Positions 5,279-43,394 of a stretch of DNA of 64,000 nt are shown here, piece by piece (the first letter of the stretch is position 1; every line of letters starts with the position of its first letter). Under the pieces are notes generated by a model. That model was not told the DNA's origin, did no database searches, and was given only the letters and a program-made list of their open reading frames with translations. A program made the translations under genes and the position numbers. Origin of the DNA: Escherichia coli (GTDB lineage Bacteria > Pseudomonadota > Gammaproteobacteria > Enterobacterales > Enterobacteriaceae); assembly GCF_965641715.1 (NCBI RefSeq), contig NZ_OZ282453.1. The stretch is one strand, 5' to 3'.

Positions 5279-5995
5279 ATGAAAAAGGCTAAAATACTTT
5301 CTGGCGTATTATTACTGTGCTTTTCGTCACCATTAATTTCTCAGGCTGCAACACTTGACGTACGTGGTGGATATCGTAGTGGAAGCCACGCCTATGAGAC
5401 TCGACTCAAAGTCAGTGAGGGATGGCAAAATGGATGGTGGGCAAGCATGGAAAGTAATACCTGGAATACCATTCATGATAATAAAAAGGAAAATGCCGCA
5501 CTCAATGATGTTCAGGTTGAAGTTAATTACGCAATTAAACTTGATGATCAATGGACGGTGCGCCCGGGAATGTTAACGCATTTTAGCAGCAACGGCACAC
5601 GCTACGGACCCTACGTAAAACTGTCCTGGGACGCGACAAAAGATCTTAATTTTGGCATTCGCTATCGTTACGACTGGAAAGCTTACCGACAACAAGACTT
5701 ATCCGGTGATATGTCTCGTGATAACGTTCATCGTTGGGATGGATATGTCACTTACCATATTAATAGTGATTTCACCTTCGCATGGCAAACGACGCTATAC
5801 AGCAAACAGAACGATTATCGCTATGCAAACCATAAGAAATGGGCGACGGAAAATGCATTTGTTCTACAATACCATATGACGCCCGATATTACGCCATACA
5901 TAGAATATGACTACCTGGACCGTCAGGGTGTTTACAACGGCAGAGATAATTTATCGGAAAACAGTTATCGCATTGGTGTGTCATTTAAACTGTAG
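5279..5995 (+). CDS. nanC: N-acetylneuraminic acid outer-membrane channel NanC (238 aa from the ATG at 5279)
   Basis: MKKAKILSGVLLLCFSSPLISQA signal peptide, C-terminal ...YRIGVSFKL beta-barrel signature; divergent from fimB. Confidence 0.9.
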   Translation: MKKAKILSGVLLLCFSSPLISQAATLDVRGGYRSGSHAYETRLKVSEGWQNGWWASMESNTWNTIHDNKKENAALNDVQVEVNYAIKLDDQWTVRPGMLTHFSSNGTRYGPYVKLSWDATKDLNFGIRYRYDWKAYRQQDLSGDMSRDNVHRWDGYVTYHINSDFTFAWQTTLYSKQNDYRYANHKKWATENAFVLQYHMTPDITPYIEYDYLDRQGVYNGRDNLSENSYRIGVSFKL

Positions 5996-6014
5996 TAGAC
6001 AGGAGACAGTCACA

Positions 6015-17239: not shown

Positions 17240-18364
17240 TCTTCTTCCCCTTAATATAAATGCACCTGCAACCACTCAGCCAAACGCTCAACGTCAAAAC
17301 CCGTAATCCATACTCCCACGCCAAAAACGTCTTCGATAAATATTCATCATATTTTCGAGGCACTTTTCAGAGATGCTCTTGGCAAGACGGGACTCAGGGG
17401 GTAAACCTTCCTGTAGTAAATTGCTTAGCGTCTGCTTAACTTTCCCGAGCGTATTTTTTCAACTACGGCAGCAAATGAGACGGTCTTAAAACCGTGCAGG
17501 ATAGGCCATATCTACAACGTGTTTACTACTTGAGCACACATTGTGATATGGCAGTCACCTTTCCGACAAATGGTGAACCGTCCCTGACGAACAACAACAT
17601 TAACGCATATCTCTTCATCGCCTGATCAAAGTAGCTGCCAACTATTATTCGCCTCAACAATGAGTTTTTTTACTAACGATTTCTACTACCTTCCCAAAGC
17701 GACCACAACAATCAAAAATATTGTTTACACATCAGTCTCATATCACCGGAGTAAGTTGACTATTGATAAACCATTTCAAGATATTAATAGCTGATCATAC
17801 TTCCCCAAAGTGCTTATTTATAGCGAAGGCAAATAGCATAAACTGAAGGGCGAATTGTTAAATCATACCGTGAATGAGCTGAAGAACAAGCATAAAAATT
17901 ATATCATTTACATGACTTATGTGTTTTAGTTAAATGATAAATAGGCAGTATAAAATCCAATTCAACAGCCGAGTTCAAGCGATTAATTTTTTGATGAGCT
18001 TATCAAGCACGAGCAGCGATACCAGCAAATCCACTTGGTTGCTTGAAGAATATGACTCCTTCAACACATAGCAGATTATCTCCGCCGTTGGTAGAGAACC
18101 GTTCACCGTTGTTAGTCAACAGTTATAAATTTATATTAATGATTAGAAGAATCTATCTCGGGGTAGATCATCAACATTACTTATTCTAAACCACGTTACA
18201 CATGATCTCCGGGGCAGCGAAGTCATCAAAAAAGAGTATTATAAAACTCCGCCCTTAAGGAGAAAGGTTTCCTGGCGGTTGTAATGCCGTTGACGATACA
18301 GCGCACAACACGGATATAAACAACCATTTGATTGATTAATATCTGAAGGGCTGTTTATATTTAA

Positions 18365-27164: not shown

Positions 27165-28178
27165 CTATCCAAAAAAATGGTCCCAGGCATTACCAGCCCA
27201 CTCGATAAGTTTGTCTTTCCCCTTACGGGTAAGCTCTTTGACAGGCTTTGGTAACGGAAAAGAATCAATAACGTCGTCGAGTATCCCGGAGATTACGCTG
27301 CCGAAGCCGTTTTTTGCTTCCGTCTTGACCTCTTCGGTTTTGAACTCATCCTTAAACTGCGAAGCCGTGCTACTTTTAGCCCGATCAGGCAAAGCCCGAA
27401 TAATAGTCTCTACCAGACGAAGAATGTTGTAGCCCTCATCGGCGGAGACAGGTGTCACCGGATAGTGCGTAAAACCAAATCGTTCAGTAATGTAGGCTTC
27501 TTTCTTTTCGATGTTGATGCGCTGTGCAGGAGATGGCTGATGCAGATGAGTATCCCACTCGCGGAATGGCTCAATTTTATCAACCTGGTTAAGGACGAAT
27601 AAAACGCGCTCACCCCCACCAGCAGGGAGCAGAACATTGTTGTAGAAATGCTCATCCGCAGAAAAGGCCCGATCGTCTCCTTTTATTACCCACAGGATAA
27701 GATCCAGGGAGGGAAGCAAATTGCGGTATAAATCTTCATACTCCTTATCCCGCCGGGCATTCTCACCGACACCAGGTATATCAATGATCTTTAGCGAATG
27801 TTTGCCGAAGCGTATACGCAATTCCTGAACTTCGCGAGTACATGCCTCAACGTCGCTAACTGCACAAACCTCCCCTTTAAACAGCGCATTACATACGCTG
27901 CTTTTCCCCGCGCCTGTTTTTCCCATGACACCAATCACAGGTTCATAGTCGATGGCTTCACTGATTTTGTTCAACAGCTTTTCCCGCAGTGGCTGAGGGA
28001 AAATATCAAGAATATCCCTGATGTCGGGTATGTGCGGTTTGCTATCACCTTTTTGCTCGTTGCTACCATTACGTTCTGGAAATATATTGCCCCACATTCC
28101 AAAAATCCCGCCTTCCCTTCTGGTGACGCCACTGGCATCAGTAATCATCCGGCCTTCGCCCTTTACCGGGTCATCCAT
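27165..28178 (-). CDS. YfjP/YeeP-family GTPase
   Basis: P-loop GVMGKTGAGKSS and G3-like DIPGVGE. Confidence 0.75.
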   Translation of the reverse strand: MDDPVKGEGRMITDASGVTRREGGIFGMWGNIFPERNGSNEQKGDSKPHIPDIRDILDIFPQPLREKLLNKISEAIDYEPVIGVMGKTGAGKSSVCNALFKGEVCAVSDVEACTREVQELRIRFGKHSLKIIDIPGVGENARRDKEYEDLYRNLLPSLDLILWVIKGDDRAFSADEHFYNNVLLPAGGGERVLFVLNQVDKIEPFREWDTHLHQPSPAQRINIEKKEAYITERFGFTHYPVTPVSADEGYNILRLVETIIRALPDRAKSSTASQFKDEFKTEEVKTEAKNGFGSVISGILDDVIDSFPLPKPVKELTRKGKDKLIEWAGNAWDHFFG

Positions 28179-28217: not shown

Positions 28218-28901
28218 TTACTCTCTGAAGGTCTGAATTACGTCACTTATGAAACGAAAGTGTGGGAGGGCTGAAATGAACTCTTCACTGGCAGTCAGAG
28301 CATCAAGTTCAGGCTTTCTGCGAAAAGAGGTATCCAGAACGGTTACGGCGTTAACGTCTTCCATCCGAAACACCTGTAAATTTCTGGTGCGGGTAGCAAC
28401 AAGAAACCAGTTTTTGGACTGAAATATCAGACGGCGGGGAGCTACTGCTTCGTAGCTTTTACCGTTAACTAATAATGTAACGGCGCGGTAGTCGCGGATA
28501 GCTTCCGCCAGTTCCAGAAAACAGGCGGTTTGTGTAACTGGAGATGGCAGCCCTCCATGCCCTATAAGGCACGGCGAGCTTCCGGAGTTACTGGTAATCA
28601 GTCGAATTAACCTGCGATTCTGAGCCGGAATAATCCCTGAAATCCCGGAATTACGGATAAACGCAAAGGTGTTGGGTGAGTGCTCCCGGCCCGTTCGGCG
28701 GGTAAGTCGATAGCTTCCGCTGGAATGCTCAAGATCCAGATGGATTAGGCGTTGCTGAAAATCCCTCTGTAGGGTGCGTTCTGAGACACCAAATTCATCA
28801 GCTAACGCTTTAAGCTCCAGAGATTCGCCAGCTAGTAAGCGGGTGATAATGACCGATAGCCTGACAGACAGGCGGTCATAATGATCATGCTGTGTTTTCA
28901 T
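28218..28901 (-). CDS. HTH/WYL-domain transcriptional regulator (YfjR-like; from the ATG at 28901, the ORF track starts at 28988)
   Basis: N-terminal HTH LKALADEFGVSERTLQRDFQQ...; C-terminal WYL-like region. Confidence 0.6.
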   Translation of the reverse strand: MKTQHDHYDRLSVRLSVIITRLLAGESLELKALADEFGVSERTLQRDFQQRLIHLDLEHSSGSYRLTRRTGREHSPNTFAFIRNSGISGIIPAQNRRLIRLITSNSGSSPCLIGHGGLPSPVTQTACFLELAEAIRDYRAVTLLVNGKSYEAVAPRRLIFQSKNWFLVATRTRNLQVFRMEDVNAVTVLDTSFRRKPELDALTASEEFISALPHFRFISDVIQTFRE

Positions 28902-29216
28902 GGTGGGGACAGTCCTGTTCTCCCAAAATATCATGGTATTGATACGAGAGATTATGCCGTACAGGTACGACACGTTATGTCGTAGCAAAGGGGAGTGGAT
29001 AGAAAAAATGGCGAAGATGTGAAGAGTTGATTAATTCATTGAAACAAAATGAATTAATAATAATTTTGGGTAAAAGCGACGTCAAAATACGACATAACCT
29101 GTCGTATTTTGTTTTAGCCGGGAAAGGATAACTGCTACTTACTAAAATGATTTAGTGCTGAAAATATTTATAAGCCAATAAATAGACCGGTATTACGGAG
29201 TAACGCCCCGGCTATG

Positions 29217-30194
29217 TTAACGTGCCCGCTGTTTTATCGGCTCAAAAAACATATCCCAGAGATGTTCAGCCATACCCTCGTTAGTGAGCAAGGTATCCCT
29301 TGAGTAGCCAGGGCTGAAGACGCCCATTGATGGGCGAAAACCAAGGTTCTGGCCGTTATTGTCAATGGTTAAGATTTCATTGTAAGCATTGCCAATCACG
29401 CCATCCTGGCTATAACCAATATCGCCCATCCCCATATTTCGCCCGCTATTACGCCAGATTGCACATTGACCTACTTTGCTTCCCCCAATGTAGATCGCAC
29501 AAGTGAAGGCATCTGCGTCACGCTTATTAAAATCGACCTCTAACCCGGCATGGCGTTTTTTGAGTTCAGTCAGCGAGCCTTCAAAATAACGGGCGACATA
29601 TTCAAAACCGTCACGGCAGGCACGATCCTTATCAAGATCGGTAAAACGTTTTGGCAGTGAAAGGTTGCTCGAGCGTGGTGTAAAAACGGTATCCGTCGCC
29701 TGAAGCATTGGATTAGCCGGAGCTGGGGCGTGCACAATCTGTTGCGGCTTTTTCGCTTCCAAATTGGCAATAGCGCGGGAAACGGCATCGACAACCTGAA
29801 CATAGCCTTCATCATGGCTGGCAAATTTATCAATTGGCTTACCGTCAACAGTTGCCGCCAGAATGCGGCCAAACGGTAACATCTTCCACGCGCATTCTCT
29901 TAAGATCACCGGAATGACCACCGCCTCGCCCCGGCTATGTCGCTCCAGAGCGTTGGTCATTTCTACCTGATAGCAATAATCAGAAGCGATAAAATCACTG
30001 CTAATCAGCAACAGGATGATGTCTGCCTGAGAAAAGTAATGATCTATTTGGTTCTCAAACTCTTGTCCTGGAATGATGCGACGATCATGCCATGTCGTGA
30101 TCTTGCCCATGCGTTTCAGGGGGGAAAGATGCTTCTCAAGCTCATTGCGCAGAGCTTCGTCTGCATGAGAATAGGAAAAAACAAGAGAGGTCAT
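29217..30194 (-). CDS. TIR-domain protein with an uncharacterised C-terminal domain (325 aa)
   Basis: N-terminal TIR signature LVFSYSHADEALRNELEKHL...IILLLISSDFIASDYCYQVEMTNALER...VVIPVILREC; divergent from hsdM. Confidence 0.65.
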   Translation of the reverse strand: MTSLVFSYSHADEALRNELEKHLSPLKRMGKITTWHDRRIIPGQEFENQIDHYFSQADIILLLISSDFIASDYCYQVEMTNALERHSRGEAVVIPVILRECAWKMLPFGRILAATVDGKPIDKFASHDEGYVQVVDAVSRAIANLEAKKPQQIVHAPAPANPMLQATDTVFTPRSSNLSLPKRFTDLDKDRACRDGFEYVARYFEGSLTELKKRHAGLEVDFNKRDADAFTCAIYIGGSKVGQCAIWRNSGRNMGMGDIGYSQDGVIGNAYNEILTIDNNGQNLGFRPSMGVFSPGYSRDTLLTNEGMAEHLWDMFFEPIKQRAR

Positions 30195-30409: not shown

Positions 30410-32116
30410 ATGGACAACGCTGAACAGCAATTTCTGAACGATCTGGATACTAAGTTCTGGAAAGCCGCAGACAAGCTACGCGCCAATATGGACGCAGCCA
30501 ACTACAAGCATGTGGTACTTGGGCTTATCTTTCTGAAGTATGTTTCAGATGCCTTTGACGCACGCCAGAAGGAACTGAAAGGACTGTTTGAAGACAAGTC
30601 CAACCCGGACAACATTTACGCGCTGTCTCGTGACGATTACGACACAGAAGAGGCGTACCAGCAGGCGATCGCAGAAGAGCTGGAAGTTCAGGATTACTAC
30701 ACTGAGAAAAACGTCTTCTGGGTACCCAAACTGGCTCGCTGGGAAACGCTTAAAACCAATGCTGCTCTACCTGTAGGGACGGTTCTGGGGAAAGACGATA
30801 GCGGCAAAGATATCGTCATGACGTCAGTATCGAAGCTGATTGATATCGCTCTGGATACTATCGAAAACAGCAACCCGAAACTGAAAAACATCCTTAACTG
30901 TATCGGACACTATCAGCTTGGTAACGACCTGCTAATTAGCCTGATTAACGTTTTCTCCGATACCAGTTTCAGCGAACCCAAATACAATGGCGTGAAGCTC
31001 AATTTGAAGAGCAAAGATATTCTCGGCCACGTTTACGAATACTTCCTTGGTCAGTTTGCACTGGCGGAAGGCAAACAGGGCGGCCAGTATTACACGCCGA
31101 AAAGCATCGTTACGCTGATTGTTGAAATGCTCCAGCCCTACAATGGCCGCGTGTATGACCCGGCGATGGGATCTGGCGGTTTCTTCGTTTCCAGCGATCG
31201 CTTTATCGAAGCACACGCTGATGAAAAGCATTACAACGCCGCTGAACAAAAACGCAATATCTCCGTTTACGGGCAGGAGTCCAACCCTACCACCTGGCGT
31301 CTGGCTGCGATGAATATGGTGATTCGCGGTATTGATTTTAACTTCGGTAAACAAAACGCCGATACGTTCCTGAACGACCAGCACCCGGATTTACGTGCCG
31401 ATTTTGTTATGGCGAACCCGCCATTCAACATGAAGGAGTGGTGGAACGCCAAGCTGGAAAACGACGTGCGCTGGAAATACGGCACGCCGCCTCAGGGCAA
31501 CGCCAACTTTGCGTGGATGCAGCACATGATCCACCACCTGGCGCCAAAAGGCTCGATGGCGCTGCTGCTGGCGAACGGTTCGATGAGCTCTAACACCAAC
31601 AACGAAGGCGAGATCCGCCGCAACCTGATCGAAGCCGATCTGGTCGAGTGCATGGTCGCGCTGCCAGGTCAGTTGTTTACCAACACCCAAATCCCGGCCT
31701 GTATCTGGTTCCTGACCAAAGACAAATCCGGCGGTAACGGCAAAGCACACCGTAAAGGCGAAGTGTTGTTTATCGACGCGCGTCAGATTGGCTTTATGAA
31801 AGACCGCGTGCTGCGTGATTTTAGCCGTGAAGATATCGCCAGAATTGCTGATATCTTCCACGCCTGGCAGACGGATAAAGGCTATGAAGACGAAGCTGGA
31901 TTCTGTTTCTCCGCAACGCTGGAAGATATCCAGAAAAACGACTTTGTGTTGACCCCTGGGCGCTATGTCGGTGCGGCCGAGCAAGACGAAGACGATGAGC
32001 CTTTTGCCGAGAAGATGGCACGACTGACGGCGCAGCTGAAAGATCAGCTGGAAGAGAGCGCGAAGCTGGAAGCACAGATTAAGGCGAATCTGGGGGGGCT
32101 GGGTTATGAGTTCTAA
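30410..32116 (+). CDS. hsdM: Type I restriction-modification methyltransferase subunit HsdM
   Basis: N6-adenine methyltransferase motifs: DPAMGSGGFF (AdoMet binding) and NPPF (MANPPFNM). Confidence 0.9.
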   Translation: MDNAEQQFLNDLDTKFWKAADKLRANMDAANYKHVVLGLIFLKYVSDAFDARQKELKGLFEDKSNPDNIYALSRDDYDTEEAYQQAIAEELEVQDYYTEKNVFWVPKLARWETLKTNAALPVGTVLGKDDSGKDIVMTSVSKLIDIALDTIENSNPKLKNILNCIGHYQLGNDLLISLINVFSDTSFSEPKYNGVKLNLKSKDILGHVYEYFLGQFALAEGKQGGQYYTPKSIVTLIVEMLQPYNGRVYDPAMGSGGFFVSSDRFIEAHADEKHYNAAEQKRNISVYGQESNPTTWRLAAMNMVIRGIDFNFGKQNADTFLNDQHPDLRADFVMANPPFNMKEWWNAKLENDVRWKYGTPPQGNANFAWMQHMIHHLAPKGSMALLLANGSMSSNTNNEGEIRRNLIEADLVECMVALPGQLFTNTQIPACIWFLTKDKSGGNGKAHRKGEVLFIDARQIGFMKDRVLRDFSREDIARIADIFHAWQTDKGYEDEAGFCFSATLEDIQKNDFVLTPGRYVGAAEQDEDDEPFAEKMARLTAQLKDQLEESAKLEAQIKANLGGLGYEF

Positions 32117-33461
32117 GTTTCGGAAAGTAAAACTATGTGAAATCCTCTCATTTAAGACAGGTAAACTCGACTCGAATGCAGCAGTAGATAATGGTTGTTA
32201 TCCTTTTTTTACTTGCTCGCCAGTTACACTTTCGATTAATACGCATGCTTTTGACACTGAAGCAGTATTATTAGCTGGTAATAACGCAAATGGGGTATTT
32301 TCAGTAAAATACCACAATGGTAAGTTTAATGCTTACCAAAGAACATATGTTATTACTCCTCTGGATAATTCAGCGGTCAATGTGAAATGGCTTTATTTTA
32401 GAATAAAATATGTTACGTCAGAATTACAATCAATGTCAGTTGGCACTGCAACAAAATTCTTAACAAAAAAGATTTTGGATTCATTTGAGATTGAACTGCC
32501 AACTTTTGAAGAGCAAACATATCAAGCTCAGATTTTATGGGCGTTACAGGATAAATTAGCTAATAATGAAGCTATAAACCAAACTCTCGAACAAATGGCG
32601 CAAGCCCTGTTCAAAAGCTGGTTTGTCGATTTTGAACCGGTAAAAGCCAAAATGGCAGCGTTGGAAGCGGGCGGTTCGCAGGAAGACGCGACACGTGCCG
32701 CCATGACGGCAATTTCCGGGAAAGATGCTGATGCGTTGGTGGTTTTTGCGCGTGAACATCCTGAGCAATATGCCGAGTTAAAAGCCACGGCAGAACTGTT
32801 TCCGTCTGCGGTGCAGGAAAGTGAGTTGGGGGCGATTCCTAAAGGATGGGGGGTGGCGTCAATTAGTGAGATGGGGAAGATTACTTGTGGCAAAACTCCG
32901 TCAAAAAAAGAACCAAAGTATTACGGTGGTGATGTTCCATTCATAAAGATACCAGATATGCATGGGCAACTCTTTGTGCTTAAAACTAATGAATATTTAA
33001 GCGAAGTCGGTTCAAAGTCGCAACTAAAAAAACTTGTGCCCGCTAACTCTATCTGTGTTAGTTGTATAGCTACTATTGGTGTTGTTTCTATCACCAATGA
33101 ACCATCTCATACCAATCAGCAAATAAATTCGGTTACACCTTATAAGAGTTCATTACTTTATTATCTTTATTTTTGTATATTGGGATTGAAAGATCATCTT
33201 CACGTTTTAGGTAGCGCAGGTAGTGCAACCTTAAATGTCAATACGTCTACTTTCTCAGGAATTAAAATCGCTCAGCCTGATGCTAAAGTATTGGAGTTAT
33301 TTCATGCCAAATGTACACAATTATTTAATGAGATTAAATCGCTCTGTGTACAAACTGAATCACTTGCACAACTACGAGACACCCTCCTCCCCAAACTCCT
33401 CTCCGGAGAAATTACGTTACCGGATGCCGAGGAAATAGCCAAGGAAGCTGACTATGTTTAA
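32106..33461 (+). CDS. hsdS: Type I restriction-modification specificity subunit HsdS
   Basis: Overlaps the hsdM stop; two AT-rich variable segments alternating with GC-richer conserved segments, as expected for two target-recognition domains. Confidence 0.85.
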   Translation: MSSKFRKVKLCEILSFKTGKLDSNAAVDNGCYPFFTCSPVTLSINTHAFDTEAVLLAGNNANGVFSVKYHNGKFNAYQRTYVITPLDNSAVNVKWLYFRIKYVTSELQSMSVGTATKFLTKKILDSFEIELPTFEEQTYQAQILWALQDKLANNEAINQTLEQMAQALFKSWFVDFEPVKAKMAALEAGGSQEDATRAAMTAISGKDADALVVFAREHPEQYAELKATAELFPSAVQESELGAIPKGWGVASISEMGKITCGKTPSKKEPKYYGGDVPFIKIPDMHGQLFVLKTNEYLSEVGSKSQLKKLVPANSICVSCIATIGVVSITNEPSHTNQQINSVTPYKSSLLYYLYFCILGLKDHLHVLGSAGSATLNVNTSTFSGIKIAQPDAKVLELFHAKCTQLFNEIKSLCVQTESLAQLRDTLLPKLLSGEITLPDAEEIAKEADYV

Positions 33462-34647
33462 AGTCGATCAGCCCAGTAATAGCCTGCAACCGCTTCAGGA
33501 AACCACCTTCACTAACGCGGGTTTCACCGAGCGCTACCACTTACAGGAGTGGCTGGCAAAGCATCCGCAAGCATTGACTCGCAACAGCGATGACGAACTA
33601 CTTATCATCCAGAAAGAGTTTGCCGGGTTTGACGACACCAAAGAGCGGTTAGATCTGCTGGCGATCGACAAAGACGGCAATCTGGTGATCATCGAGAACA
33701 AGCTCGATGATTCCGGGCGTGATGTCGTATGGCAGGCGCTGAAGTACGCGGGCTACTGCGCGAATCTACGCAAAGAACATATTGTTGAGATCTTCCAGCG
33801 TTACCTCGATCAGAACGATCCAGAAGAAACACGCCCAGCCTCTGATGTGCTCGCAGAATTCCTCGAACATGAAAGCCTGGATGAAGTGCAAATTAACCAA
33901 AGCCGTTCCCAGCGTGTGATGATGGTTGCGGCAAATTTCCGCAAGGAAGTTACCAATACTGCGCTCTGGCTGATGCAGTTCAACATCCGTGTCCAATGCT
34001 TTAAGGTCACGCCTTACCGTTATGGAAATGATGTATTCATCGACATCCGCCAGGTTATTCCCACACCGGAAGCCGAATCCTACATGATCGGTATGGCGCA
34101 GAAGGAAGCAGAAGAACAATCAACCAGCGGTGAACTGAAACAGAGCCAACGCCTGCGCAAGGCGTTCTGGACGCAGATGCTGGAGAAATTTCATGCCAGC
34201 GACTGTACGCTGTATAACAACATCAGCCCGTCTATGGATCACTGGTTATGTGCAGGCTCTGGCATAAGTGGTATGCCTTATAGCCTAATATTCAGCAAGA
34301 AGGAAATCCGCGTAGAATTATGGATTTCGCGAGCATCGGCAGACATCAACACCATGGCGTTGAACTGGCTTGAACAACACCGCACATCTGTCGAAGAGGT
34401 ATTCGGCAACCCACTGGAGTGGCTATCGCTACCTGGTAAAAAAGCCTGCCGTATTCAATACCGCCAAAAAATAGATGGCTTCCAGCAGGAAAATTGGCCG
34501 CAAATGATCGACTGGCTGGTGGAACATATGACCCGTTTTGAGAATGCGCTTTCGCCGTATCTGCCACAGCTTAACCAGTTGATCAAGCAGACCTTTAACG
34601 GGCATGATGAAGCTGAAAATACAACAGAAGAAGCCGAACACGTATAA
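33454..34647 (+). CDS. Uncharacterised 397-aa protein inside the RM operon, with a PD-(D/E)xK-like motif
   Basis: Start overlaps the hsdS stop; 16 bp before hsdR; RLDLLAIDKDGNLVIIENKLDD resembles a D...E-x-K nuclease core; no Walker A. Confidence 0.6.
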   Translation: MFKVDQPSNSLQPLQETTFTNAGFTERYHLQEWLAKHPQALTRNSDDELLIIQKEFAGFDDTKERLDLLAIDKDGNLVIIENKLDDSGRDVVWQALKYAGYCANLRKEHIVEIFQRYLDQNDPEETRPASDVLAEFLEHESLDEVQINQSRSQRVMMVAANFRKEVTNTALWLMQFNIRVQCFKVTPYRYGNDVFIDIRQVIPTPEAESYMIGMAQKEAEEQSTSGELKQSQRLRKAFWTQMLEKFHASDCTLYNNISPSMDHWLCAGSGISGMPYSLIFSKKEIRVELWISRASADINTMALNWLEQHRTSVEEVFGNPLEWLSLPGKKACRIQYRQKIDGFQQENWPQMIDWLVEHMTRFENALSPYLPQLNQLIKQTFNGHDEAENTTEEAEHV

Positions 34648-34662
34648 CACAGGACGTTACCG

Positions 34663-37600
34663 ATGCTTACCGAAGACGACTTAGAACAGCTTTGCCAGGG
34701 CTGGTTTGCCGAACAAGGTTGGGAAATCCATCATGGGCCAGATATTGCCCCCGATGGCTGTAACCCGCAACGCGCCAGCTATCATGATGTATTCCTGACG
34801 CCCGTGTTGAACGCCTGCCTGCAAAAAATCAACCCGCACCTGCCCACTGACGTCTTCGAACAGGTCATCTCCCGTATTACTCGCGCTGAAAGCCCGGATC
34901 TGATTGCCAGTAACAAAGCCTTTCATCACTGGTTGCTGGAAGGGGTTCCGGTACAGTACCGTCGCGACGAAGAACTTATCCACGACCACGCCCTGCTGGT
35001 GGATTTTAGCCAGCCGCAAAACAACCGTTTTATGGTGGTCAATCAAATGACTATCAGCGGAACGAAACAGCCTCGCCGCCCGGATATCATCTGCTTTATT
35101 AACGGAATACCACTGGCGGTTGTGGAACTAAAAAGCCCTGTCGATGACAAGGTAGATATCTGGGATGCGTACCACCAGTTACAGACCTATAAAGATGAAA
35201 TACGCGACCTGTTTATCAGCAATGAAGCGTTGATTGTCAGTGATGGTTATCTGGCGCGTGTGGGGTCCCTGACCGCCACGGAAGAACGTTTTATGCCGTG
35301 GAAGACCATCAGCAATGAAAATGACAAGCCGTTGCTGGAATGGCAACTGGAAACTATGGTACGGGGTTTCTTCAACCGGGAATTGCTGCTCGACTATATC
35401 CGCTATTTCGTTCTGTTTGAAAATAACGATGAAAGGCTAATTAAGAAAATAGCTGGTTATCACCAGTTCCACGCGGTGCGTGAGGCCGTGCAGGCGACGA
35501 TCGTTGCTTCGACCGGTAAGCAACTGGTACTGCACAGTAATATTCAGCCAGGCAGTAAGAAAGCAGGCGTGGTCTGGCATACGCAGGGTTCCGGTAAAAG
35601 CATCTCCATGTGTTGCTATGTCGGCAAACTGTTGCAACAGCCGGAGATGGGCAACCCGACGATTGTTGTTGTGACCGATCGTAACGATCTGGACGGCCAG
35701 CTTTATGGTACATTCTGCCAGGCACAGGAGCTGCTCAAGCAAATGCCGGTACAGGCAGATGATCGTGAAACATTGCGTGATCTGCTTGCAACTCGCGATG
35801 CTGGCGGCATTATCTTTACCACCGTGCAGAAATTCTCCCCGGAAGAAGGGGAAAACGCCCATCCGATTCTCAATGGACGCAGCAATATCGTTGTTATTTC
35901 CGATGAAGCGCACCGCAGCCAGTACGGCATGAAAGCCAACCTGGATCGTAAAACCGGCGTCTATAAATACGGTTACGCTAAACATATGCGCGACGCGCTA
36001 CCTAACGCCTCGTTTCTGGGATTTACCGGTACACCGGTTTCGGCAGAGGATCGCGATACTCGCGCTGTATTTGGCGATTACGTCTCAATTTATGATATTC
36101 AGGACGCTGTGGACGATGGCGCAACGGTGCCTATTCACTATGAATCCCGGCTGGCAAAACTCGATCTCAATCATGAAGAGCTGGCGGCGCTGTCCGATCA
36201 GGTTGAAGAACTGATTGAGGACGATGAGCTGGATCAGAGAGAAAAAACCAAAGGTGAATGGAGCCGTCTGGAGAAACTAGTTGGTGCTAAACCACGTCTT
36301 CAGCAGATCGCTGCCGATCTGATTTCTCACTTTGAGAAGCGCAATACCGTAATGGACGGCAAGGCGATGATTGTCGCCATGAGCCGTGAAATCTGCGTCC
36401 ATCTTTACGATGAAATTATTGCGTTGCGTCCGGAGTGGCACGATGACGATCCTGAAAAAGGGCAAATCAAAATCGTGATGACCGGTACAGCATCTGATAA
36501 GGCAATGCTGCAACCGCATATCTACAACAAACGGACTAAAAAACGGCTGGAATCCCGCTTCAAGAATGTGAACGACCCGCTGAAGCTGGTGATAGTGCGT
36601 GATATGTGGCTGACCGGCTTTGATGCCCCATGCTGTCACACTATGTATATCGACAAACCGATGCGCGGCCATAACCTGATGCAGGCTATTGCCCGTGTCA
36701 ACCGGGTATTCAAAGACAAGCCCGGCGGGCTGGTGGTGGATTATATTGGTATCGCCAATGAGCTGAAACTGGCGCTGAAAACTTATACCGATGCAAACGG
36801 TAAAGGTGATGCGACCGTCAACGCTGAAGAAGCACTGGCAATCATGCTGGAAAAGCTGGACATCATCCACGGTATGTTTGCCAAAACGGCAACGTCAGCG
36901 GGTTTTGATTACACCGGCTTTGAAGCTCATGCGCAGAAGTTGCTAGTACCAGTTGCAAACTATGTGCTCGGCCTTGAAGACGGTAAGAAGCGTTTTCTCG
37001 ATAACGTACTGGCAATTACTAAAGCCTGGTCGCTTTGCTGTACGCTGGATGCGGCGCAGCCTTATAAACTAGAGATTGCTTTCTTGTCGGCGGTAAAAGC
37101 TGCTATCAGCAAATTCACCAGTGTGGACAAAAAAATAAGCCAGGCTGAGAAGAACTCCGCGCTGAAACAGATTCTGGATAATGCCGTAATTGCTAACGGC
37201 GTGGATGATATTTTCACGCTGGCTGGTCTGGATAAACCGAATATTGGCTTGCTTTCAGATGAATTCTTGCAGGAAGTCCGCGATATGCCATATCGAAATC
37301 TGGCGGTAGAGCTGCTGGAAAAACTGATTAATGACGGTATCCAGTCCCGTACAAAAAACAATGTAGTGCAGGAGAGGAAATATTCAGAACGTCTTCAGGC
37401 TGTATTGATTAAATACAACAACCGGGCTATTGAGACGGCGCAGGTGATTGAAGAGCTGATCCAGATGGCGAAGGATTTTCAGTCTGCAATGGCGCGTGAT
37501 GATGCGCTTGGCCTGAATCCTGACGAGATCGCTTTCTACGATGCACTGGCAGAAAACGAAAGCGCCGTCCGGGAGTTAGGAGATGAGGTACTTAAGAAAC

Positions 37601-37797
37601 TGGCGATAGAAGTGACGCTGAAGCTGCGCCAATCCACTACCGTTGACTGGCAGGTACGGGAAAGCGTTCGTGCAAGGCTGCGTATCCTGGTTCGCCAGAC
37701 TCTGCGTCGGTATAAGTATCCGCCAGATAAAACGCCGGGTGCGGTGGAGTTAATTTTGAAACAAGCGGAAGTTATTTCGAATCATTGGACGATGTGA
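34663..37797 (+). CDS. hsdR: Type I restriction-modification endonuclease/helicase subunit HsdR
   Basis: 1044 aa; Walker A TQGSGKS, DEAH box [11 protein letters not shown], and further helicase motifs. Confidence 0.9.
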
Positions 37798-37861
37798 ATT
37801 TTAGGCTGGCTGTATCAACTGCCAGCCATATTTAAATTATCATCAGTTAAAAGGCACAATT

Positions 37862-39604
37862 GTGAGTAAATATAGCGAAATACAACGTCAATTAGATGAA
37901 GTAAGCCCAATACCGAAAGGTATTCCTAAAGTATACCTTTTAGGGGACACTGGAGCAGGAAAGACGACTTTTATTCGAAAAATATTAGGAACTGAAAATA
38001 CCAAATTCCCTACCACCAGACAAAGTAGAACAACCGTTGCACCAACTGAGTATGTAATATGTAAATCATCCAATTATGAATTAACGATTCTGTTAAAATC
38101 TTTTGATGAGATTAATGGATATGTCAGAGAAATTCTAAAAGAAGCATTAGAGAAATCATTGAAAGGTGAAGATGTTAAAAGAAGCTTACGTCAAACAAAT
38201 GATCAGCGGTTTCGTTTATACTATCTTCTTGACGTCAGTGATATTGCAAATTTTGCTGAAGAAGTTATCTCTCTTACACCTCTTCTTTCCGAAAAAATTG
38301 ACGAATTAAAAGAAATTTTTACCGATGATATAACGGATCAAGATGAGTATATTAGTTTTGCTATTGATGAATTAAATGATAAAGTTGAATGTATCCAAAA
38401 TAAGATTATGGACTCCATTCAGAGTAATGTAATGTCCATTTGTAATGGAAGTATGTTAAGTAATGAATCACAGATATTTAAATACATTTCAACCGAAAAA
38501 GAAGACTTTATCAAAAAATGTAAAAAAATATTATCAAGTGATAAAGAGTCTATATCACCTGTTGTCGAGTATGCGAGACTGAGTGGAGAACTCAAATCAG
38601 AATGGGTGAATAGTTGTGCAGAAATAGTTATTATTGATGGTGAAGGTATTGGGCATAATACAAAAGAAACGGCACAACTAGACTCCAGGCATTATGATTT
38701 CTTTTATGATGTTAACTCAATCTTGCTTATCGAAGAGTCAAAAAAACCTTTTATTGCTGGGGGCAAAAATGCATTAAAAAGTATTTTTCAGCGTGGATAT
38801 GGTGATAAATTAAAACTAATCTTCACTAAGCTGGATGAAGTTATACCTTATGATTCAGACGAATCAACAGATGAAGATAGAATTGATTATGTAAAAGATG
38901 GTCTCAATAATGTTCTGGATGCATTAAAAAAAGAAGAGGTGAAGTGTAACATTGATATCGAGGATATTTATTTCATCGGAGATCTTGATAAACCTGAGCA
39001 TAACGCAAGACTTGAATTGGCTTTTAATTCCATATATGAAAACACAGTTTCCATGATAAATAATGATGAGGTTTTCATTGAGCCTAAGTATGACTTTGAG
39101 TTATTGGCCTTGCATATAAATTCTACTTCTAATGATTTTAAAACATACTATAGAAAATTATTAGATAGAGAACATTGGAAAACAATAGAAGCATTTAATC
39201 GACGGATGTATTCAAATATAGATGGGTTTAGGATGTTTATGCCTATTACCGATTTTGAGGAAACTGTGAGTAAATATATTGGTGGTTTTTTGACCTCGCC
39301 AATGGATTGGAAATATGAAGCGGTTGATAACTTGAAGCAAAAAAGTATTAATAAAATCAAGAGGGAATTCAACAAGCTTATTCTTAGCTTTATTCGCAAT
39401 AAGTTAATTATGGAACCATATGAAAAATGGAAAGAATCCTATTTCTTAGCTGGCACTGGTTCAACGATTAGTAGAAAACGTGAGATAACTACTATTTTTA
39501 GTGACACAATTATTGATGCCTCCCAAACTGAACGCTTTAAGGTGTTCAAGGATCAAATTAAAGAGATTGTTGTCAAGTCAATAGAGAACTGTAAGTCAAT
39601 ATAA
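37862..39604 (+). CDS. AT-rich P-loop GTPase-like protein (580 aa, GTG start)
   Basis: G1 GDTGAGKTT, G3-like DGEGIG, G4-like TKLD; much more AT-rich than the flanking hsdR. Confidence 0.6.
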   Translation: MSKYSEIQRQLDEVSPIPKGIPKVYLLGDTGAGKTTFIRKILGTENTKFPTTRQSRTTVAPTEYVICKSSNYELTILLKSFDEINGYVREILKEALEKSLKGEDVKRSLRQTNDQRFRLYYLLDVSDIANFAEEVISLTPLLSEKIDELKEIFTDDITDQDEYISFAIDELNDKVECIQNKIMDSIQSNVMSICNGSMLSNESQIFKYISTEKEDFIKKCKKILSSDKESISPVVEYARLSGELKSEWVNSCAEIVIIDGEGIGHNTKETAQLDSRHYDFFYDVNSILLIEESKKPFIAGGKNALKSIFQRGYGDKLKLIFTKLDEVIPYDSDESTDEDRIDYVKDGLNNVLDALKKEEVKCNIDIEDIYFIGDLDKPEHNARLELAFNSIYENTVSMINNDEVFIEPKYDFELLALHINSTSNDFKTYYRKLLDREHWKTIEAFNRRMYSNIDGFRMFMPITDFEETVSKYIGGFLTSPMDWKYEAVDNLKQKSINKIKREFNKLILSFIRNKLIMEPYEKWKESYFLAGTGSTISRKREITTIFSDTIIDASQTERFKVFKDQIKEIVVKSIENCKSI

Positions 39605-39706
39605 TAAGATAGAACAGTCCCGGATAATATTCGGGACTCATACACTTACAGATGGAGCTATGAATTTAGCAGTAAGAGTATTTGTGATTATTTAAGGAAA
39701 GTAACA

Positions 39707-40672
39707 ATGCCTTTAGATTTAAGTAACACTTTAGTTATTGGCATTAGCGCGACTGCGCTTTTTGACATGAGCGAATCCGACCATATGTTTCGGGAAACCT
39801 TTGCGACTGATCCTGATAGCGCCATTGAAAAATACCGCGCTTATATGCTAGAACACGAAAACCAACCTTTACAGCCCGGAACAGGCTACCCCTTAGTCAA
39901 AGCGTTGCTGGGTCTGAACCAGTACCGTCAACCGGATGATAAATCGCCGTTGGTTGAGGTTGTTGTGATGTCACGTAACAGCCCTGATACAGGTATCCGC
40001 GTTCTCAATACCATTCGCCATGACAAACTCGATATTACACGTTCAGCTTTTACCGCAGGCGAAACCGTTGCCGATTACCTTGATGCCTTTGATGTGGATC
40101 TGTTTTTAACGACCAACGTTGAAGATGCGCAAAAGGTGATTGATTCCCGATTCTGCGCCGCTGCAATCCTGAAAGATCCACCTTCTGACGCATCTGATAT
40201 CCCAGAAGGGCAAGTGCGCATTGCTTTTGATGGCGACGCGGTACTTTTTTCCGATCAAAGCGAACTGGTTTATAAGACCCAAGGAATGGCTGCCTTCCAT
40301 GCTCAGGAAGACGCGCAGCAGGATATCCCTATGGAAGAGGGGCCTTATGCCACTTTGCTAAAAAAAATAGCCAAGCTTCAGGAACGATTGCCGACCCGCG
40401 TTGAGTATTCTCCTGTTCGTATTGCGCTGGTGACAGCCCGAAATAGCCCTTCGGAAATGCGCGTTATTAAAACGCTAAGAAGCTGGGGGGTATATGTCGA
40501 TGAAGCTTTTTTTCTTGGCGGTGTAGAGAAAACAAAAGTTCTGAAGGCGTTTAGGCCACACATTTTCTTTGACGATCAGGATGTGCATTTGATCGCGGCT
40601 GCAAAGGTAGTACCTTCTGGTAAAGTACCTTATGCCAGTAACTCCGAACTTGCAGAACGTGAAGCATCGTGA
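39707..40672 (+). CDS. 5'-nucleotidase-family protein (HAD-like)
   Basis: HAD-type motif IAFDGDAVLFSD and C-terminal FFDDQDVH; family assignment from memory. Confidence 0.5.
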   Translation: MPLDLSNTLVIGISATALFDMSESDHMFRETFATDPDSAIEKYRAYMLEHENQPLQPGTGYPLVKALLGLNQYRQPDDKSPLVEVVVMSRNSPDTGIRVLNTIRHDKLDITRSAFTAGETVADYLDAFDVDLFLTTNVEDAQKVIDSRFCAAAILKDPPSDASDIPEGQVRIAFDGDAVLFSDQSELVYKTQGMAAFHAQEDAQQDIPMEEGPYATLLKKIAKLQERLPTRVEYSPVRIALVTARNSPSEMRVIKTLRSWGVYVDEAFFLGGVEKTKVLKAFRPHIFFDDQDVHLIAAAKVVPSGKVPYASNSELAEREAS

Positions 40673-40749: not shown

Positions 40750-41670
40750 TCAATGCTCTCCTCTGAACACCTCTTTTCTGTGCCATTCCACAAACTGCTC
40801 GCCCGGATAATTTTCTTTAACCGGTGGCAACGCAATCGCCTTTCCCGCAAAATCCCAGAACAGTCGCTGTACCACTCCACCACCATTTACCGCGCCGGAA
40901 ACCACCACACGCATATTTTCATCCAAGCCAATCGAACCGCGATCAAACGCTTTATGATGGATTGCGCACAATGCCAGGCCATTAGGTACTTCACAAGGGC
41001 CATGGTGCTGCTTCCATCTGATATGAGCAGCTTCCAGAGCAATTGGCGCATTGTCGTGGCGCATGTTGAAGCCGCAGATCGCACACTGATAATTGTAAGC
41101 ACGTAGCACCATCTGGCGGAACTTCGGATCGCGTTGACGGAGAGAGGTGCGAATATCAAAACCCATCTCGTCAGCTATCTCTTCCTGAATACTGGCCGGG
41201 AAATGCGCCTCCAGGAGCTGCTGCGCCAGCGTATCAATTAACCTGTGATTTTTTGCCACCAACGCAAAATTATCGGCATCAAATCCACCAGCGACATTAT
41301 ATTCAATGAGTTCACGTCGGGGCGGCTGGCGGCTACCACTGGTTGAGCACAGTTGTGCGTTTTGTAGTTCCCAGAAGCCATCGCCCTTCAGACGCCAGAA
41401 CGGCATGTCCGGGCGCTGGTCACGGCGCTGCGGTCCATAACGTTCCAGAAGATCCAACAGGGGCTCGTAGATTTCAGAACCATAGTTAAACAGGCGACCA
41501 TGACCCTGCCGATAGTGTGAGAGGACGTGCAGCAGCAATAATGGCTTATGTGGCGCACGTTGTTCGCCTTTGCGCCAGATGGTGATATTTGATATCGCTT
41601 GCTTTAGGGCTTTGTCAGAGGTCATTGCGTTGAAGAATCCATGAGCACATATTTGCGATGATGCTCGCAA
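40750..41670 (-). CDS. HNH-nuclease-domain protein (306 aa) beside the integrase
   Basis: C-terminal His-Me finger YQCAICGFNMRHDNAPIALEAAHIRWKQHHGPCEVPNGLALCAIHHKAFDRG; N-terminal region shares the KPLLLL motif with the fragment at 8904-9146. Confidence 0.6.
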   Translation of the reverse strand: MRASSQICAHGFFNAMTSDKALKQAISNITIWRKGEQRAPHKPLLLLHVLSHYRQGHGRLFNYGSEIYEPLLDLLERYGPQRRDQRPDMPFWRLKGDGFWELQNAQLCSTSGSRQPPRRELIEYNVAGGFDADNFALVAKNHRLIDTLAQQLLEAHFPASIQEEIADEMGFDIRTSLRQRDPKFRQMVLRAYNYQCAICGFNMRHDNAPIALEAAHIRWKQHHGPCEVPNGLALCAIHHKAFDRGSIGLDENMRVVVSGAVNGGGVVQRLFWDFAGKAIALPPVKENYPGEQFVEWHRKEVFRGEH

Positions 41671-41840: not shown

Positions 41841-43109
41841 TCACTCGCCATTACCCCGATTGATCTTCGCATAGTCAAACGGCGTAATCGCTCTCTCCCG
41901 ATTGGCATCCAGAAAATCAGCCCACCACTGCAACATCAGCTTGCGCTCATCCAGGTGTTCCGCTTTATGGATATACGCCGCCCTCACCGAGCTGCGTTCC
42001 ATATGGCTCATCTGCCTTTCCACCGCATCCTTCGACCATAACCCTGACTCAATCAATGAGCTACAGGCCATTGTGCGGAAGCCGTGGCCGCAAACTTCAA
42101 CCTTAGTGTCATAACCCATCACCCGTAGCGCACTGTTTACCGTGTTCTCGCTCATGGGCTTACGCGGATCGTGATCGCCAATAAAAATCAGCTCATGTTC
42201 GCCACAGAACTGTTTTATCTGCTTCAGGATCGCCAGCGCCTGCTTTGAAAGCGGCACCAGATGCGGTGTACGCATCTTTGAACCTCGCTGAGAATGTTTC
42301 ACACCGGGAATCGGTTCTCGCTCAGGCGGGATGGTCCACATTGACGTTTCAAAATCGATTTCTGACCAGCGAGCAAAACGTAGCTCACTGGATCGAATAA
42401 AGATAAGCAGAGTGAGTTCTGTCGCCCAGCGGGTTAGCGGCCTGCCTGTATAGCTATCTATTTTCTCAAGTAACTCAGGGATACGCTTTAATTCCAGCGC
42501 CGGGCGATGCTGTCGATTGCCAGAGGCGACTGCTCCAGCCATCTCCTGCGCTGGGTTGTAATCAATCAGCCCACTTTGCACTGCATAACGCATAATGGCC
42601 GTGGTACGCTGTTGGAGACGAGAAGCCACCTCAAGACGTCCAGACAGTTCCACCGCTTTAATGGGTGCCAGTAAGTCACGAGTGCCCAATTCGGCAATAT
42701 TGCGAGAACCAATTGCCGGGAAGATATTGTCCTCCAGGCTCTTTTTTACACGATTAGCATGATCTTCTGACCATTTTTGGTTGGTTACGAGCCACTCTCT
42801 GGCAACCTTCTCGAAAGTAATAATCTCTTTCGCCTGCTCTTCTTTCACAGCACGCTTATGCTCACGAGGATCGATACCAGCAGCTACCAGCTTTCTGGCC
42901 TCTTCCCTTTTCTTCCTGGCATCTGCCAGCGAAACATCCGGGTAAACGCCGAACGCCATCAAATGTTGTTTACCGCCAAAACGGAAACGAAATCGCCAAT
43001 ACTTTGAACCGCCAGGTTTTACAAGTAAGGACATGCCATCGCCGTCAACAAGTGAATACTCTTTCTCCTCAGGTTTCGCAGAGCGAACTTTAGTATCCGT
43101 TAGGGCCAT
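41841..43109 (-). CDS. intB: P4-type tyrosine integrase (from the ATG at 43109; the ORF track starts at 43187)
   Basis: MALTDTKVRSAKPEEKEYSLVDGDG...; C-terminal ...HGFRTMACSSLIESG... catalytic region; about 200 bp from the leuX 3' end. Confidence 0.9.
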   Translation of the reverse strand: MALTDTKVRSAKPEEKEYSLVDGDGMSLLVKPGGSKYWRFRFRFGGKQHLMAFGVYPDVSLADARKKREEARKLVAAGIDPREHKRAVKEEQAKEIITFEKVAREWLVTNQKWSEDHANRVKKSLEDNIFPAIGSRNIAELGTRDLLAPIKAVELSGRLEVASRLQQRTTAIMRYAVQSGLIDYNPAQEMAGAVASGNRQHRPALELKRIPELLEKIDSYTGRPLTRWATELTLLIFIRSSELRFARWSEIDFETSMWTIPPEREPIPGVKHSQRGSKMRTPHLVPLSKQALAILKQIKQFCGEHELIFIGDHDPRKPMSENTVNSALRVMGYDTKVEVCGHGFRTMACSSLIESGLWSKDAVERQMSHMERSSVRAAYIHKAEHLDERKLMLQWWADFLDANRERAITPFDYAKINRGNGE

Positions 43110-43270
43110 AATGGTCTTCCTTCCATTGGTATCTCGTGAGTATACAAGCAATATCGAATCGGCAAATATACTCATTAGTATACTCACAAGCCTGTTGATG
43201 TGGGTTGGTTCAGGTTGACTTCAGTTGAGGAGAAAAGCTGGAAAAGCCTTGCGTGGCGCGGATTTCAGGC

Positions 43271-43309: not shown

Positions 43310-43394
43310 TGGTGCCGAAGGCCGGACTCGAACCGGCACGTATTTCTACGGTTGATTTTGAATCAACTGCGTCTACCGATTTCGCCACTTCGGC
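43310..43394 (-). tRNA. leuX: tRNA-Leu (leuX), intact with CCA end
   Basis: Reverse complement GCCGAAGTGGCGAAATCGGTAGACGCAGTTGATTCAAAATCAACCGTAGAAATACGTGCCGGTTCGAGTCCGGCCTTCGGCACCA; 85 nt. Confidence 0.95.

Follow-up and report, generated by a model that had tools for sequence, protein, structure and literature searches.

A compact dynamin-like putative GTPase as a candidate single-gene phage-defence protein in a leuX island of Escherichia coli

The DNA analysed here, a stretch of 64,000 nucleotides of Escherichia coli (assembly GCF_965641715.1, contig NZ_OZ282453.1) that will be referred to as the window, carries at 37862..39604 of its plus strand a gene for a protein of 580 amino acids (aa), hereafter the target, which lies inside an island integrated at leuX, the tRNA-Leu(CAA) gene at 43310-43394. 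The ahr-idnK-idnD region of the window is 99.7% identical to strain MLI104K1. The target starts 64 bp from the stop codon of hsdR (37797), which belongs to a type I restriction-modification (R-M) system, and it is followed after 102 bp by a 5'-nucleotidase-like gene (39707). An earlier note, made from the letters alone, had read a P-loop GTPase in this position, and both the open reading frame (ORF) and the motifs GDTGAGKTT, DGEGIGH and FTKLD were confirmed. Judging from its modelled structure, the target is very probably a compact, divergent and soluble GTPase of the dynamin superfamily, and it is a good candidate for a new single-gene phage-defence protein. The features of the gene are as follows, with conservation counted over 312 distinct family members.

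37862..39604, plus strand: coding sequence of the target, a compact dynamin-like GTPase of an unnamed family; GTG start, TAA stop, 580 aa
37943..37969, plus strand: G1 motif (P-loop) GDTGAGKTT, aa 28-36; G28, G31, G33 and K34 invariant or nearly so
38027..38050, plus strand: candidate G2 motif (switch I) RTTVAPTE, aa 56-63; T58 in 310/312 and E63 in 307/312
38102..38461, plus strand: insertion into the G domain, about 120 aa and mostly helical, aa 81-200, from the secondary structure of the model
38624..38656, plus strand: G3 motif (Walker B) IVIIDGEGIGH, aa 255-265; D259, G262 and H265 each in 312/312
38822..38836, plus strand: G4-like motif FTKLD, aa 321-325, consensus F[TS][KH][LF]D; D325 in 301/312
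39095..39598, plus strand: all-helical C-terminal domain, aa 412-579, from the helices of the model

The N-terminus of the target (MSKYSEIQ...) agrees with those of its homologues, and the GTG start codon is therefore taken as correct. Pairwise ratios of nonsynonymous to synonymous substitution (dN/dS) among five enterobacterial alleles were 0.07-0.15, and hundreds of full-length homologues were found, all of which indicates a real gene under purifying selection. The protein is rich in I (10.7%), K (9.8%) and E (9.5%), and no hydrophobic or transmembrane segment was detected along it (maximal Kyte-Doolittle score of any 19-mer, 0.87). As the earlier note had stated, the gene is AT-rich when compared with the adjacent hsdR, with a G+C content (GC) of 0.320 (0.26 at third codon positions, GC3) versus 0.500 (GC3 0.55) in hsdR and 0.473 in the 5'-nucleotidase-like gene. 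The GC falls and recovers at the borders of the target, only 0.2% of all 1743-bp segments of the 64 kb are equally AT-rich, and the minimum lies inside the target, which makes it the AT-richest gene-sized stretch of the window. Other AT-rich stretches, with GC values of 0.34-0.39, were found at 2001-6000, 59001-60000 and 62001-64000, and they may represent further horizontally acquired segments.

The motif pattern of the dynamin superfamily, i.e. G1 (GxxxxGK[ST]), a G2 Thr, G3 (DxxG) and G4 ([NT]KxD), is present in the target (T58 for G2, D259-G-E-G262 for G3 and T322-K-L-D325 for G4), and classical dynamin likewise has TKLD as its G4 motif. Across the family, the invariant or nearly invariant patterns are GxTGxGK[TS][TS], [RK]-T-T58 with E63, D259-G-E-G262-[IL]-G-H265 and F-[TS]-[KH]-[LF]-D325, and the conservation of G1, G2, G3 and the G4-like motif in the 312 members bears out the assignment to GTPase-type P-loop proteins. 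At position 323, within G4, 154 of the members have K and 144 have H. The family also has motifs of its own. The insertion contains DQRFRLYY (aa 114-121; DQRFRLxY in the family), whose F117, R118 and Y121 are kept in at least 292 of the 312 members, and the C-terminal domain contains HWxxIxAFxRR (aa 438-449) and WxxxxxxxGxGSTxxR (aa 523-538), whose W439, A444, R448, W523, G531, S534 and R538 are found in at least 303 (family-wide patterns HWxx[IV]KA[FL]xRR, W523 and G531-x-G-S-T-x-x-R538).

An AlphaFold2 model of the target, built on a 40-sequence alignment, reached a mean predicted local distance difference test (pLDDT) of 90 and a predicted template-modelling score (pTM) of 0.89. The modelled chain begins with an N-terminal helix (aa 3-14), followed by beta1, the P-loop and alpha1 and by a beta2-beta3 hairpin, and continues with the helical insertion (aa 81-200), the remaining G domain and the all-helical C-terminal domain (aa 412-579). 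When this model was compared with the PDB by Foldseek, the top 25 matches all belonged to the dynamin superfamily, with SynDLP in first place (4.8e-8), and the matches also included dynamin, Campylobacter DLP1/2, BDLP, Drp1, OPA1, MxA/MxB, IniA and mitofusins. The enlarged G domain is closer in fold to dynamins than to small GTPases, and in the stalk comparison BDLP could be aligned over 324 residues, at global template-modelling scores (TM-scores) of about 0.3 to solved dynamins. In AFDB50, the whole fold was matched by uncharacterized family members only, including proteins fused to PtuA (TM-scores 0.84-0.87) and a clade of 750-aa proteins. The structure thus puts into the dynamin superfamily a protein that the earlier note could not assign to any named family.

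At the level of sequence profiles, the best Pfam match was MMR_HSR1 (E 0.005, aa 23-69) when the single protein and all 40 alignment members were searched, and the sole NCBIfam match was TIGR00231 (small_GTP), with 16.1 bits versus a cut-off of 42.5. PADLOC gave weak matches to mad3 (E 0.0012) and mad8 (E 0.002), both of 15-17 bits, and none to its PtuA model; the antiphage_MADS3 model of NCBIfam did not match, PHROGs returned nothing, and PDB searches with the single protein or a profile yielded P-loop-level matches only, e.g. LRRK2 Roc. None of Pfam, NCBIfam, PADLOC and PHROGs has a name for the family to which the target belongs. A borderline Pfam Dynamin_N match (E 9.5e-4), spanning the split G domain, was obtained with a distant family member (P0150).

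A HMMER search of 1.84 billion representative proteins retrieved 516 clusters (50% identity) at E <= 1e-3 and 122 at E <= 1e-30. A word-indexed search gave 315 proteins, most of them full-length and of 583-590 aa and none with a meaningful name or a Pfam domain, from hosts that include Klebsiella, Salmonella, Pectobacterium, Aeromonas, Vibrio, Photobacterium, Accumulibacter, Desulfobacteraceae, Opitutaceae and KSB1. The 80 loci found by scanning one genome per species are spread over Proteobacteria, Campylobacterota, Actinomycetota, Bacillota, Chloroflexota, Planctomycetota, Verrucomicrobiota, Acidobacteriota, Bacteroidota, Nitrospirota and Leptospira, and distant members were found on eleven plasmids. 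The family is large, sparsely distributed and horizontally mobile. A phage origin of the target was considered and rejected, as no match was found in 50,697 phage records and the 22 distant matches (21-30% identity) in the 2.9 million contigs of IMG/VR included none of the core clade.

Several architectures were distinguished among 327 full-length members. The bare core of about 583 aa, which is the architecture of the target, accounts for about 200 of them, and 119 have a conserved N-terminal domain of about 95 aa in front of the core, for a total of about 750 aa. In 21 members about 400 aa are added on the C-terminal side of the core, and this extension matches the ABC ATPases of the PtuA/AriA type (AriA 3e-51, PtuA 4e-25), and other N-terminal domains were seen in single cases, one of them a Swt1-like HEPN domain (P0265, 2.8e-27). 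In the dynamin-like-PtuA loci (L015, L025, L026, L027, L029, L030, L031 and L034) the dynamin-like module is about 550 aa long, and a gene for a PtuB-like HNH protein (3e-19 for L015), which overlaps the fusion gene or lies no more than 6 bp from it, comes immediately 3' in all eight loci with downstream sequence. These gene pairs represent an undescribed variant of Septu with a dynamin-like N-terminal module. At L034 a MADS3-like ATPase gene was observed 4 bp upstream of the fusion gene. The 95-aa N-terminal domain of the 750-aa clade gave a weak DUF6538 match (E 0.003) and no PDB match, and that it might be a DNA-binding domain resembling an integrase arm is an unconfirmed hunch. Four betaproteobacterial loci of this clade (L064, L067, L073 and L080) share a conserved gene of about 489 aa in overlap with the end of the dynamin-like gene; its family is not clear, its PDC-S12 match is marginal, and it may be a clade-specific partner.

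In the window, the gap between hsdR and the 5'-nucleotidase-like gene has the following two structures near its ends.

37804..37827, plus strand: stem-loop GGCTGGC...GCCAGCC, left cassette edge; RNA fold -15.8 kcal/mol, z -4.5 versus shuffles
39616..39638, plus strand: stem-loop AGTCCCGGAT...ATTCGGGACT, right cassette end, after the target stop; RNA fold -13.9 kcal/mol, z -3.1

The pairing of the hairpin behind the hsdR stop is preserved in four relatives, one of which, Citrobacter, has a compensatory change (GACTGGC/GTCAGTC in L014), and a hairpin of different sequence occupies the site after the target stop in Buttiauxella. Since neither hairpin has a T-run behind it, they do not look like canonical terminators, and a scan for intrinsic terminators and promoters found nothing above the shuffled expectation. 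Homology to islands that lack the target resumes near 39695, at the ribosome-binding site of the 5'-nucleotidase-like gene, and up to that point the sequence of E. coli W is unrelated, with genes of 582 and 88 aa in front of the 5'-nucleotidase-like gene. Because the contents of this slot differ among strains and homology to E. coli W returns only near 39695, the AT-rich 1.9 kb between 37798 and about 39695 are a cassette the size of one gene, bracketed by the two stem-loops, in a cargo slot of variable content that lies between the type I R-M operon and the integrase end of the island. The 582-aa gene of E. coli W was considered as a divergent homologue of the target and rejected (BLASTP E 2.2), and it had no PADLOC match either.

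The target is present in just 2 of 5426 complete E. coli genomes, those of strain G3/10 (95% aa identity, in an island at tRNA-Sec) and strain EC291 (81%, at leuX), where TerY-P and R-M genes accompany it. This rarity, together with the lack of any NCBIfam match at the cut-off, indicates that it is not a housekeeping GTPase. The block of island genes in front of it (GTPase-WYL-TIR-hsdMS-DUF4268-hsdR) occurs with about 96% DNA identity in 52 genomes, and in the one that was inspected, strain SA186, hsdR is followed by a hypothetical gene of 165 aa, with neither the target nor the 5'-nucleotidase-like gene. The latter is found in about 150 E. coli genomes that lack the target, usually beside a phosphorothioate-dependent HNH nuclease gene and with varying genes 5' of it. 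The arrangement with hsdR 64 or 65 bp in front of the target is common to E. coli, Buttiauxella and Citrobacter, with targets of 75-95% aa identity, and the 5'-nucleotidase-like gene is next to the target in Buttiauxella and not in Citrobacter farmeri.

When the window was compared with Citrobacter farmeri (L014), hsdR was 98.5% identical (98-99% for hsdR and the DUF4268 gene together) and the target 75%, whereas in the comparison with E. coli G3/10 (L001) hsdR was 76.5% and the target 95% identical. Such discordant identities show that target alleles have been shuffled relative to hsdR by recombination, and on the sequences compared the conserved hairpin behind hsdR must coincide with a breakpoint or be close to one. 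The genes of the core clade have a GC 0.06-0.24 lower than that of their flanks in E. coli, Aeromonas, Pectobacterium and Accumulibacter, and the exceptions, Aliidiomarina and two short contigs of Vibrio and Photobacterium, show a difference of merely 0.02-0.04; the 750-aa clade is mostly at host GC. Of the separate and probably recent acquisition proposed in the earlier note, the first half is upheld, as the alleles are shuffled versus hsdR and other genes occupy the slot elsewhere, but the second is not, as the arrangement is shared across genera. Because of that sharing, and because low GC is a trait of the whole core clade in the hosts examined, the AT-richness marks mobility rather than a recent event in this strain.

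The remaining genes of the island are as follows.

27165-28178, minus strand: YeeP/YkfA-type small GTPase, with weak LeoBC/LeoA and Der/Era matches
28218-28988, minus strand: WYL protein, paired with the YeeP-type GTPase
29217-30194, minus strand: ThsB-like TIR protein (PADLOC ThsB1, 3e-157), divergent from hsdM
30410-32116: hsdM, 5' of hsdS
32106-33461, plus strand: hsdS; GC 0.395 and GC3 0.32, far below hsdM and hsdR
33454-34647, plus strand: DUF4268 protein, PADLOC candidate PDC-S11 (1e-177), overlapping hsdS by 8 bp
34663-37797, plus strand: hsdR, type I R-M gene just 5' of the target
39707-40672, plus strand: 5'-nucleotidase-like gene, PADLOC single-gene candidate PDC-S08 (5e-134), with Pfam PF06189 in the Buttiauxella homologue
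40750-41670, minus strand: phosphorothioated-DNA-binding HNH restriction endonuclease (NCBIfam NF045808, 5e-133), adjoining the integrase
41841-43187, minus strand: P4-type integrase, at the integrase end of the leuX island

The YeeP-type protein is a second GTPase of the island and shows no similarity to the target beyond weak P-loop-level matches. In E. coli, Buttiauxella and Citrobacter alike, the ThsB-like TIR gene accompanies the hsd block, and no ThsA was found among the neighbours tested around it. The hsdS products of the relatives vary between 442 and 491 aa, and this length variation and the low GC would fit swapped target-recognition domains. The DUF4268 protein has a faint NucS-like match at its N-terminus, and its gene keeps the position between hsdS and hsdR in all the related type I loci seen (L001, L002, L013, L014 and L099). 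The nuclease at 40750-41670 has, judged by its homologues, a ScoMcrA-like SBD+HNH architecture, and no dnd or ssp modification genes were noticed near it. The ORFs tested between 5907 and 27152 gave no PADLOC match; two of them, large and adjacent, encode 743 and 1581 aa at 10302-17275 on the minus strand.

The neighbourhoods of the wider family were studied by clustering all-against-all the flanking ORFs of about 90 non-redundant loci. No universal neighbour of the core clade was found in them, the PtuB-like HNH gene being specific to the fusions and the 489-aa gene to four loci of the 750-aa clade. Within 10 kb, 13 loci had hsdM-like genes, 8 of these loci being from outside the enterobacterial clade, while 9 had hsdR and 6 had integrases. 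Other neighbours of the core clade are an integrase in Vibrio, a divergent XRE regulator in Accumulibacter and a CRISPR-Cas system about 6 kb away in Photobacterium. On a Rhodococcus plasmid a type I R-M system adjoins the family member, and on an Agrobacterium plasmid DGQHR and radical-SAM genes do so. A WYL gene precedes the hsdM of the Aliidiomarina relative (L020). The 598-aa gene that follows the Agrobacterium homologue was considered as a tandem paralogue and rejected as unrelated (hhalign probability 0.1). Among 19 large adjacent ORFs, picked by hand in 15 diverse loci, 8 had PADLOC matches, which include DISARM DrmD and DrmMI (E = 0, Actinoallomurus), SspH/DndH-like and Orf5/SspE-like proteins and a MADS3-like ATPase. 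As a whole, the neighbourhoods are suggestive of a link of the family with defence genes.

Experimental precedents for such a link come from other dynamin-like proteins. A two-gene Dynamins system made of LeoA/LeoBC homologues protects Bacillus subtilis from jumbo phages, for which the P-loops are needed (bioRxiv 10.1101/2022.05.11.491447), DynA delays phage lysis (PMC8844932), and human MX1 was found in a cross-kingdom screen in bacteria to restrict the phages Bas25 and Bas30 in a GTPase-dependent manner (bioRxiv 10.64898/2026.06.11.731453). By analogy, it is plausible that a single dynamin-like protein can restrict phages in bacteria. Taken together, the genomic settings and relatives of the target make a role in phage defence probable, and we propose, with a probability of roughly 0.6, that it is a stand-alone anti-phage protein of the Mx or DynA kind, acting as a GTP-driven mechanochemical switch and encoded on a swappable cassette of the leuX defence island.

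The data show the gene with its motifs and fold class, its accessory and mobile status, the lack of a conserved partner, the neighbours in defence islands and the fusions. The use of GTP, the role in defence and every step of the mechanism are what we infer, and the specific mechanism outlined here is doubtful. The use of guanine nucleotides is predicted because the protein has the G1-G4 pattern with a conserved Asp in G4, and nucleotide-dependent dimerization of the G domain and assembly are predicted from the dynamin fold. A phage-derived structure or perturbation would be recognized through the helical regions, GTP-dependent dimerization or oligomerization of the G domain would then follow, and the assembly would either trap or disrupt a phage component, as Mx might, or stabilize the envelope and delay lysis in the manner of DynA. 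The HW..KA..RR, GxGST..R and DQRFRLxY motifs would be candidates for target recognition or, alternatively, for an intramolecular arginine finger or a regulatory contact. Since sister architectures wire the core to nucleases (a PtuA-like ATPase with PtuB-like HNH, or HEPN), we read it as a sensor or switch, and if so the output of the bare 580-aa form must be the assembly itself. Given that no membrane-binding element is evident, we lean slightly towards the trapping of a phage structure. A bolder and rather unlikely extension is that the module of about 550 aa is a self-sufficient bacterial counterpart of Mx, which would directly recognize an assembly of the phage, be it a capsid, a nucleoprotein or a replication compartment, and restrict it by GTP-driven oligomerization, and which would have been reused as the trigger of nuclease systems (Septu PtuA-PtuB, HEPN); in a variant of it, the target beside hsdR would sense the attack of a phage anti-restriction protein on the type I enzyme.

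Several observations weigh against the main proposal. As the superposition takes in the G domain and no more than part of the helical region, the global TM-scores against solved dynamins reach just about 0.3, Pfam Dynamin_N does not match the target even at E <= 10, and neither the LeoA/LeoBC models of PADLOC (E <= 0.01) nor DLP_LeoA_gen of NCBIfam match it. With His in place of the G4 Lys in half of the family, the specificity for GTP is not certain. The core-clade copies of Aeromonas and Pectobacterium stand alone among housekeeping genes and have no defence neighbour, and the neighbours that were searched were a hand-picked sample of large adjacent ORFs with no matched control, so that the link with defence is one of guilt by association. 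As the 580-aa form has no effector domain and no evident membrane-binding segment, neither the Mx-like nor the DynA-like endpoint is directly indicated, and literature searches, which included accessions and links between dynamins and Septu, found no publication on the family.

The position of the target next to hsdR raised the question of whether it might guard or back up the type I R-M system, being silent while the complex is intact and becoming active once the complex is disabled by an anti-restriction protein of a phage. This logic has a precedent in PrrC, an NTPase-nuclease encoded within a type Ic hsd locus, and would be in agreement with the fact that the target lies 64-65 bp after hsdR, on the same strand and behind the conserved stem-loop, in all five enterobacterial loci, and that type I R-M is the commonest neighbour in unrelated phyla as well (the 13 hsdM-like loci, the Rhodococcus plasmid, and L050 and L070, where the distance is 84-92 bp). 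Nevertheless, the R-M genes are found at varying distances and in varying orientations (L007 divergent, L016 convergent, L037 and L086 on opposite strands), many copies lack any R-M gene within 8-10 kb, target alleles recombine independently of hsdR, and the target contains no nuclease or other effector domain, all of which makes a guard improbable. It is also unlikely, if somewhat less so, that the target serves the mobile element or the cell outside defence, in membrane remodelling or repair or in the maintenance or segregation of the island, and merely travels in cargo regions. Characterized bacterial dynamin-like proteins (BDLP, DynA, IniA, LeoA and SynDLP) do act on membranes, which we count in favour of this possibility, and the family travels with integrases and plasmids, some copies having no defence neighbours. 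The target, however, lacks any hydrophobic or transmembrane segment, and what the family is fused to are defence modules of the PtuA/PtuB and HEPN types rather than membrane or transfer proteins. Its distribution is patchy, its GC low and the turnover of its alleles fast, as fits genes engaged in conflict, and the cargo slot is a variable one beside R-M, TIR, PDC-S11, PDC-S08 and a phosphorothioate-dependent nuclease.

A two-gene system made of the target and the 5'-nucleotidase-like gene, a pairing entertained in the earlier note, has very little probability. In the window, E. coli G3/10, EC291 and Buttiauxella the two are neighbours on one strand, 102 bp apart, and PDC-S08 is a defence candidate itself, but each gene occurs without the other, i.e. 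the 5'-nucleotidase-like gene in those roughly 150 E. coli genomes, with unrelated genes preceding it in E. coli W, and the target in Citrobacter farmeri and in every distant locus examined, so that the cluster recurs only in enterobacterial loci. Moreover, a stem-loop stands between the two genes, and the homology to other islands begins exactly at the 5'-nucleotidase ribosome-binding site. That the target could be an ABC/SMC-type ATPase akin to MAD3/MAD8 of MADS instead of a GTPase is an idea to which we give almost no credit; it would account for the mad3 and mad8 matches, for weak PDB sequence matches to ABC proteins and for the long insertion between Walker A and Walker B, which ABC ATPases also have, but the structure and the motif pattern contradict it.

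If the target is protective, it would represent a new single-gene defence family of more than 500 clusters at 50% identity, present in many phyla and missed by PADLOC, NCBIfam and Pfam; the candidate lists of PADLOC include both neighbours (PDC-S11 and PDC-S08) and not the target. It would also provide in E. coli a minimal, soluble dynamin-like GTPase and thereby a tractable model for sensing and blocking of the Mx type, which is still unclear in animals, and the fusions suggest how nucleases of the Septu type can be coupled to a GTPase sensor. If it is not protective, the family would be a widespread orphan group of dynamin-like proteins on mobile islands.

The target folds, and would work, like a dynamin-like protein and lies, by profile, outside Dynamin_N, LeoA/LeoBC, Septu, MADS and the housekeeping GTPases. 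The bacterial dynamin-like and mitofusin-type proteins (SynDLP, BDLP, Campylobacter DLP1/2, IniA and Fzo1/MFN) have about 600-800 aa, whereas the target has 580 aa and no Dynamin_N match, a helical insertion of about 120 aa with the DQRFRLxY motif, a short C-terminal domain with invariant motifs of its own and no detectable membrane-binding paddle or hydrophobic segment. DynA, a two-headed fusion that binds membranes, belongs to the chromosomal housekeeping proteins, and the target differs from it as a rare accessory gene with one G domain. The B. subtilis protein is likewise bacterial and dynamin-like and protects from phages through a delay of lysis (PMC8844932). A housekeeping TRAFAC GTPase (Era, Der, EngB, ObgE and others) would be expected in nearly all strains and with a score above the cut-off of its model, neither of which holds for the target.

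Among the defence systems, Dynamins/Eleos (LeoA with LeoBC; Millman et al. 2022, bioRxiv 10.1101/2022.05.11.491447) consists, like the target, of dynamin-fold GTPases in defence islands, but it has two or three dynamin-like genes in tandem in one operon, while the target is single, with no adjacent paralogue in about 90 loci, and is not matched by the PADLOC models of LeoA/LeoBC or by DLP_LeoA_gen. The matches to MAD3 and MAD8 of MADS (E 0.0012 and 0.002) are not significant. In the case of Septu (PtuA ABC ATPase with PtuB HNH), relatives of the target form the N-terminal 550 aa or so of PtuA-like proteins that have a PtuB-like gene next to them, and the target itself, which has neither an ABC ATPase domain nor an HNH gene in an operon with it, corresponds to this extra N-terminal module only. 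The animal Mx proteins (MxA/MX1 and MxB) share with the target no detectable sequence homology beyond the G motifs, and their stalk architecture is different. With respect to the known dynamin-like antiviral GTPases, what is new in the target is a single compact gene with a sequence family of its own, which is also found as a module of an undescribed Septu variant.

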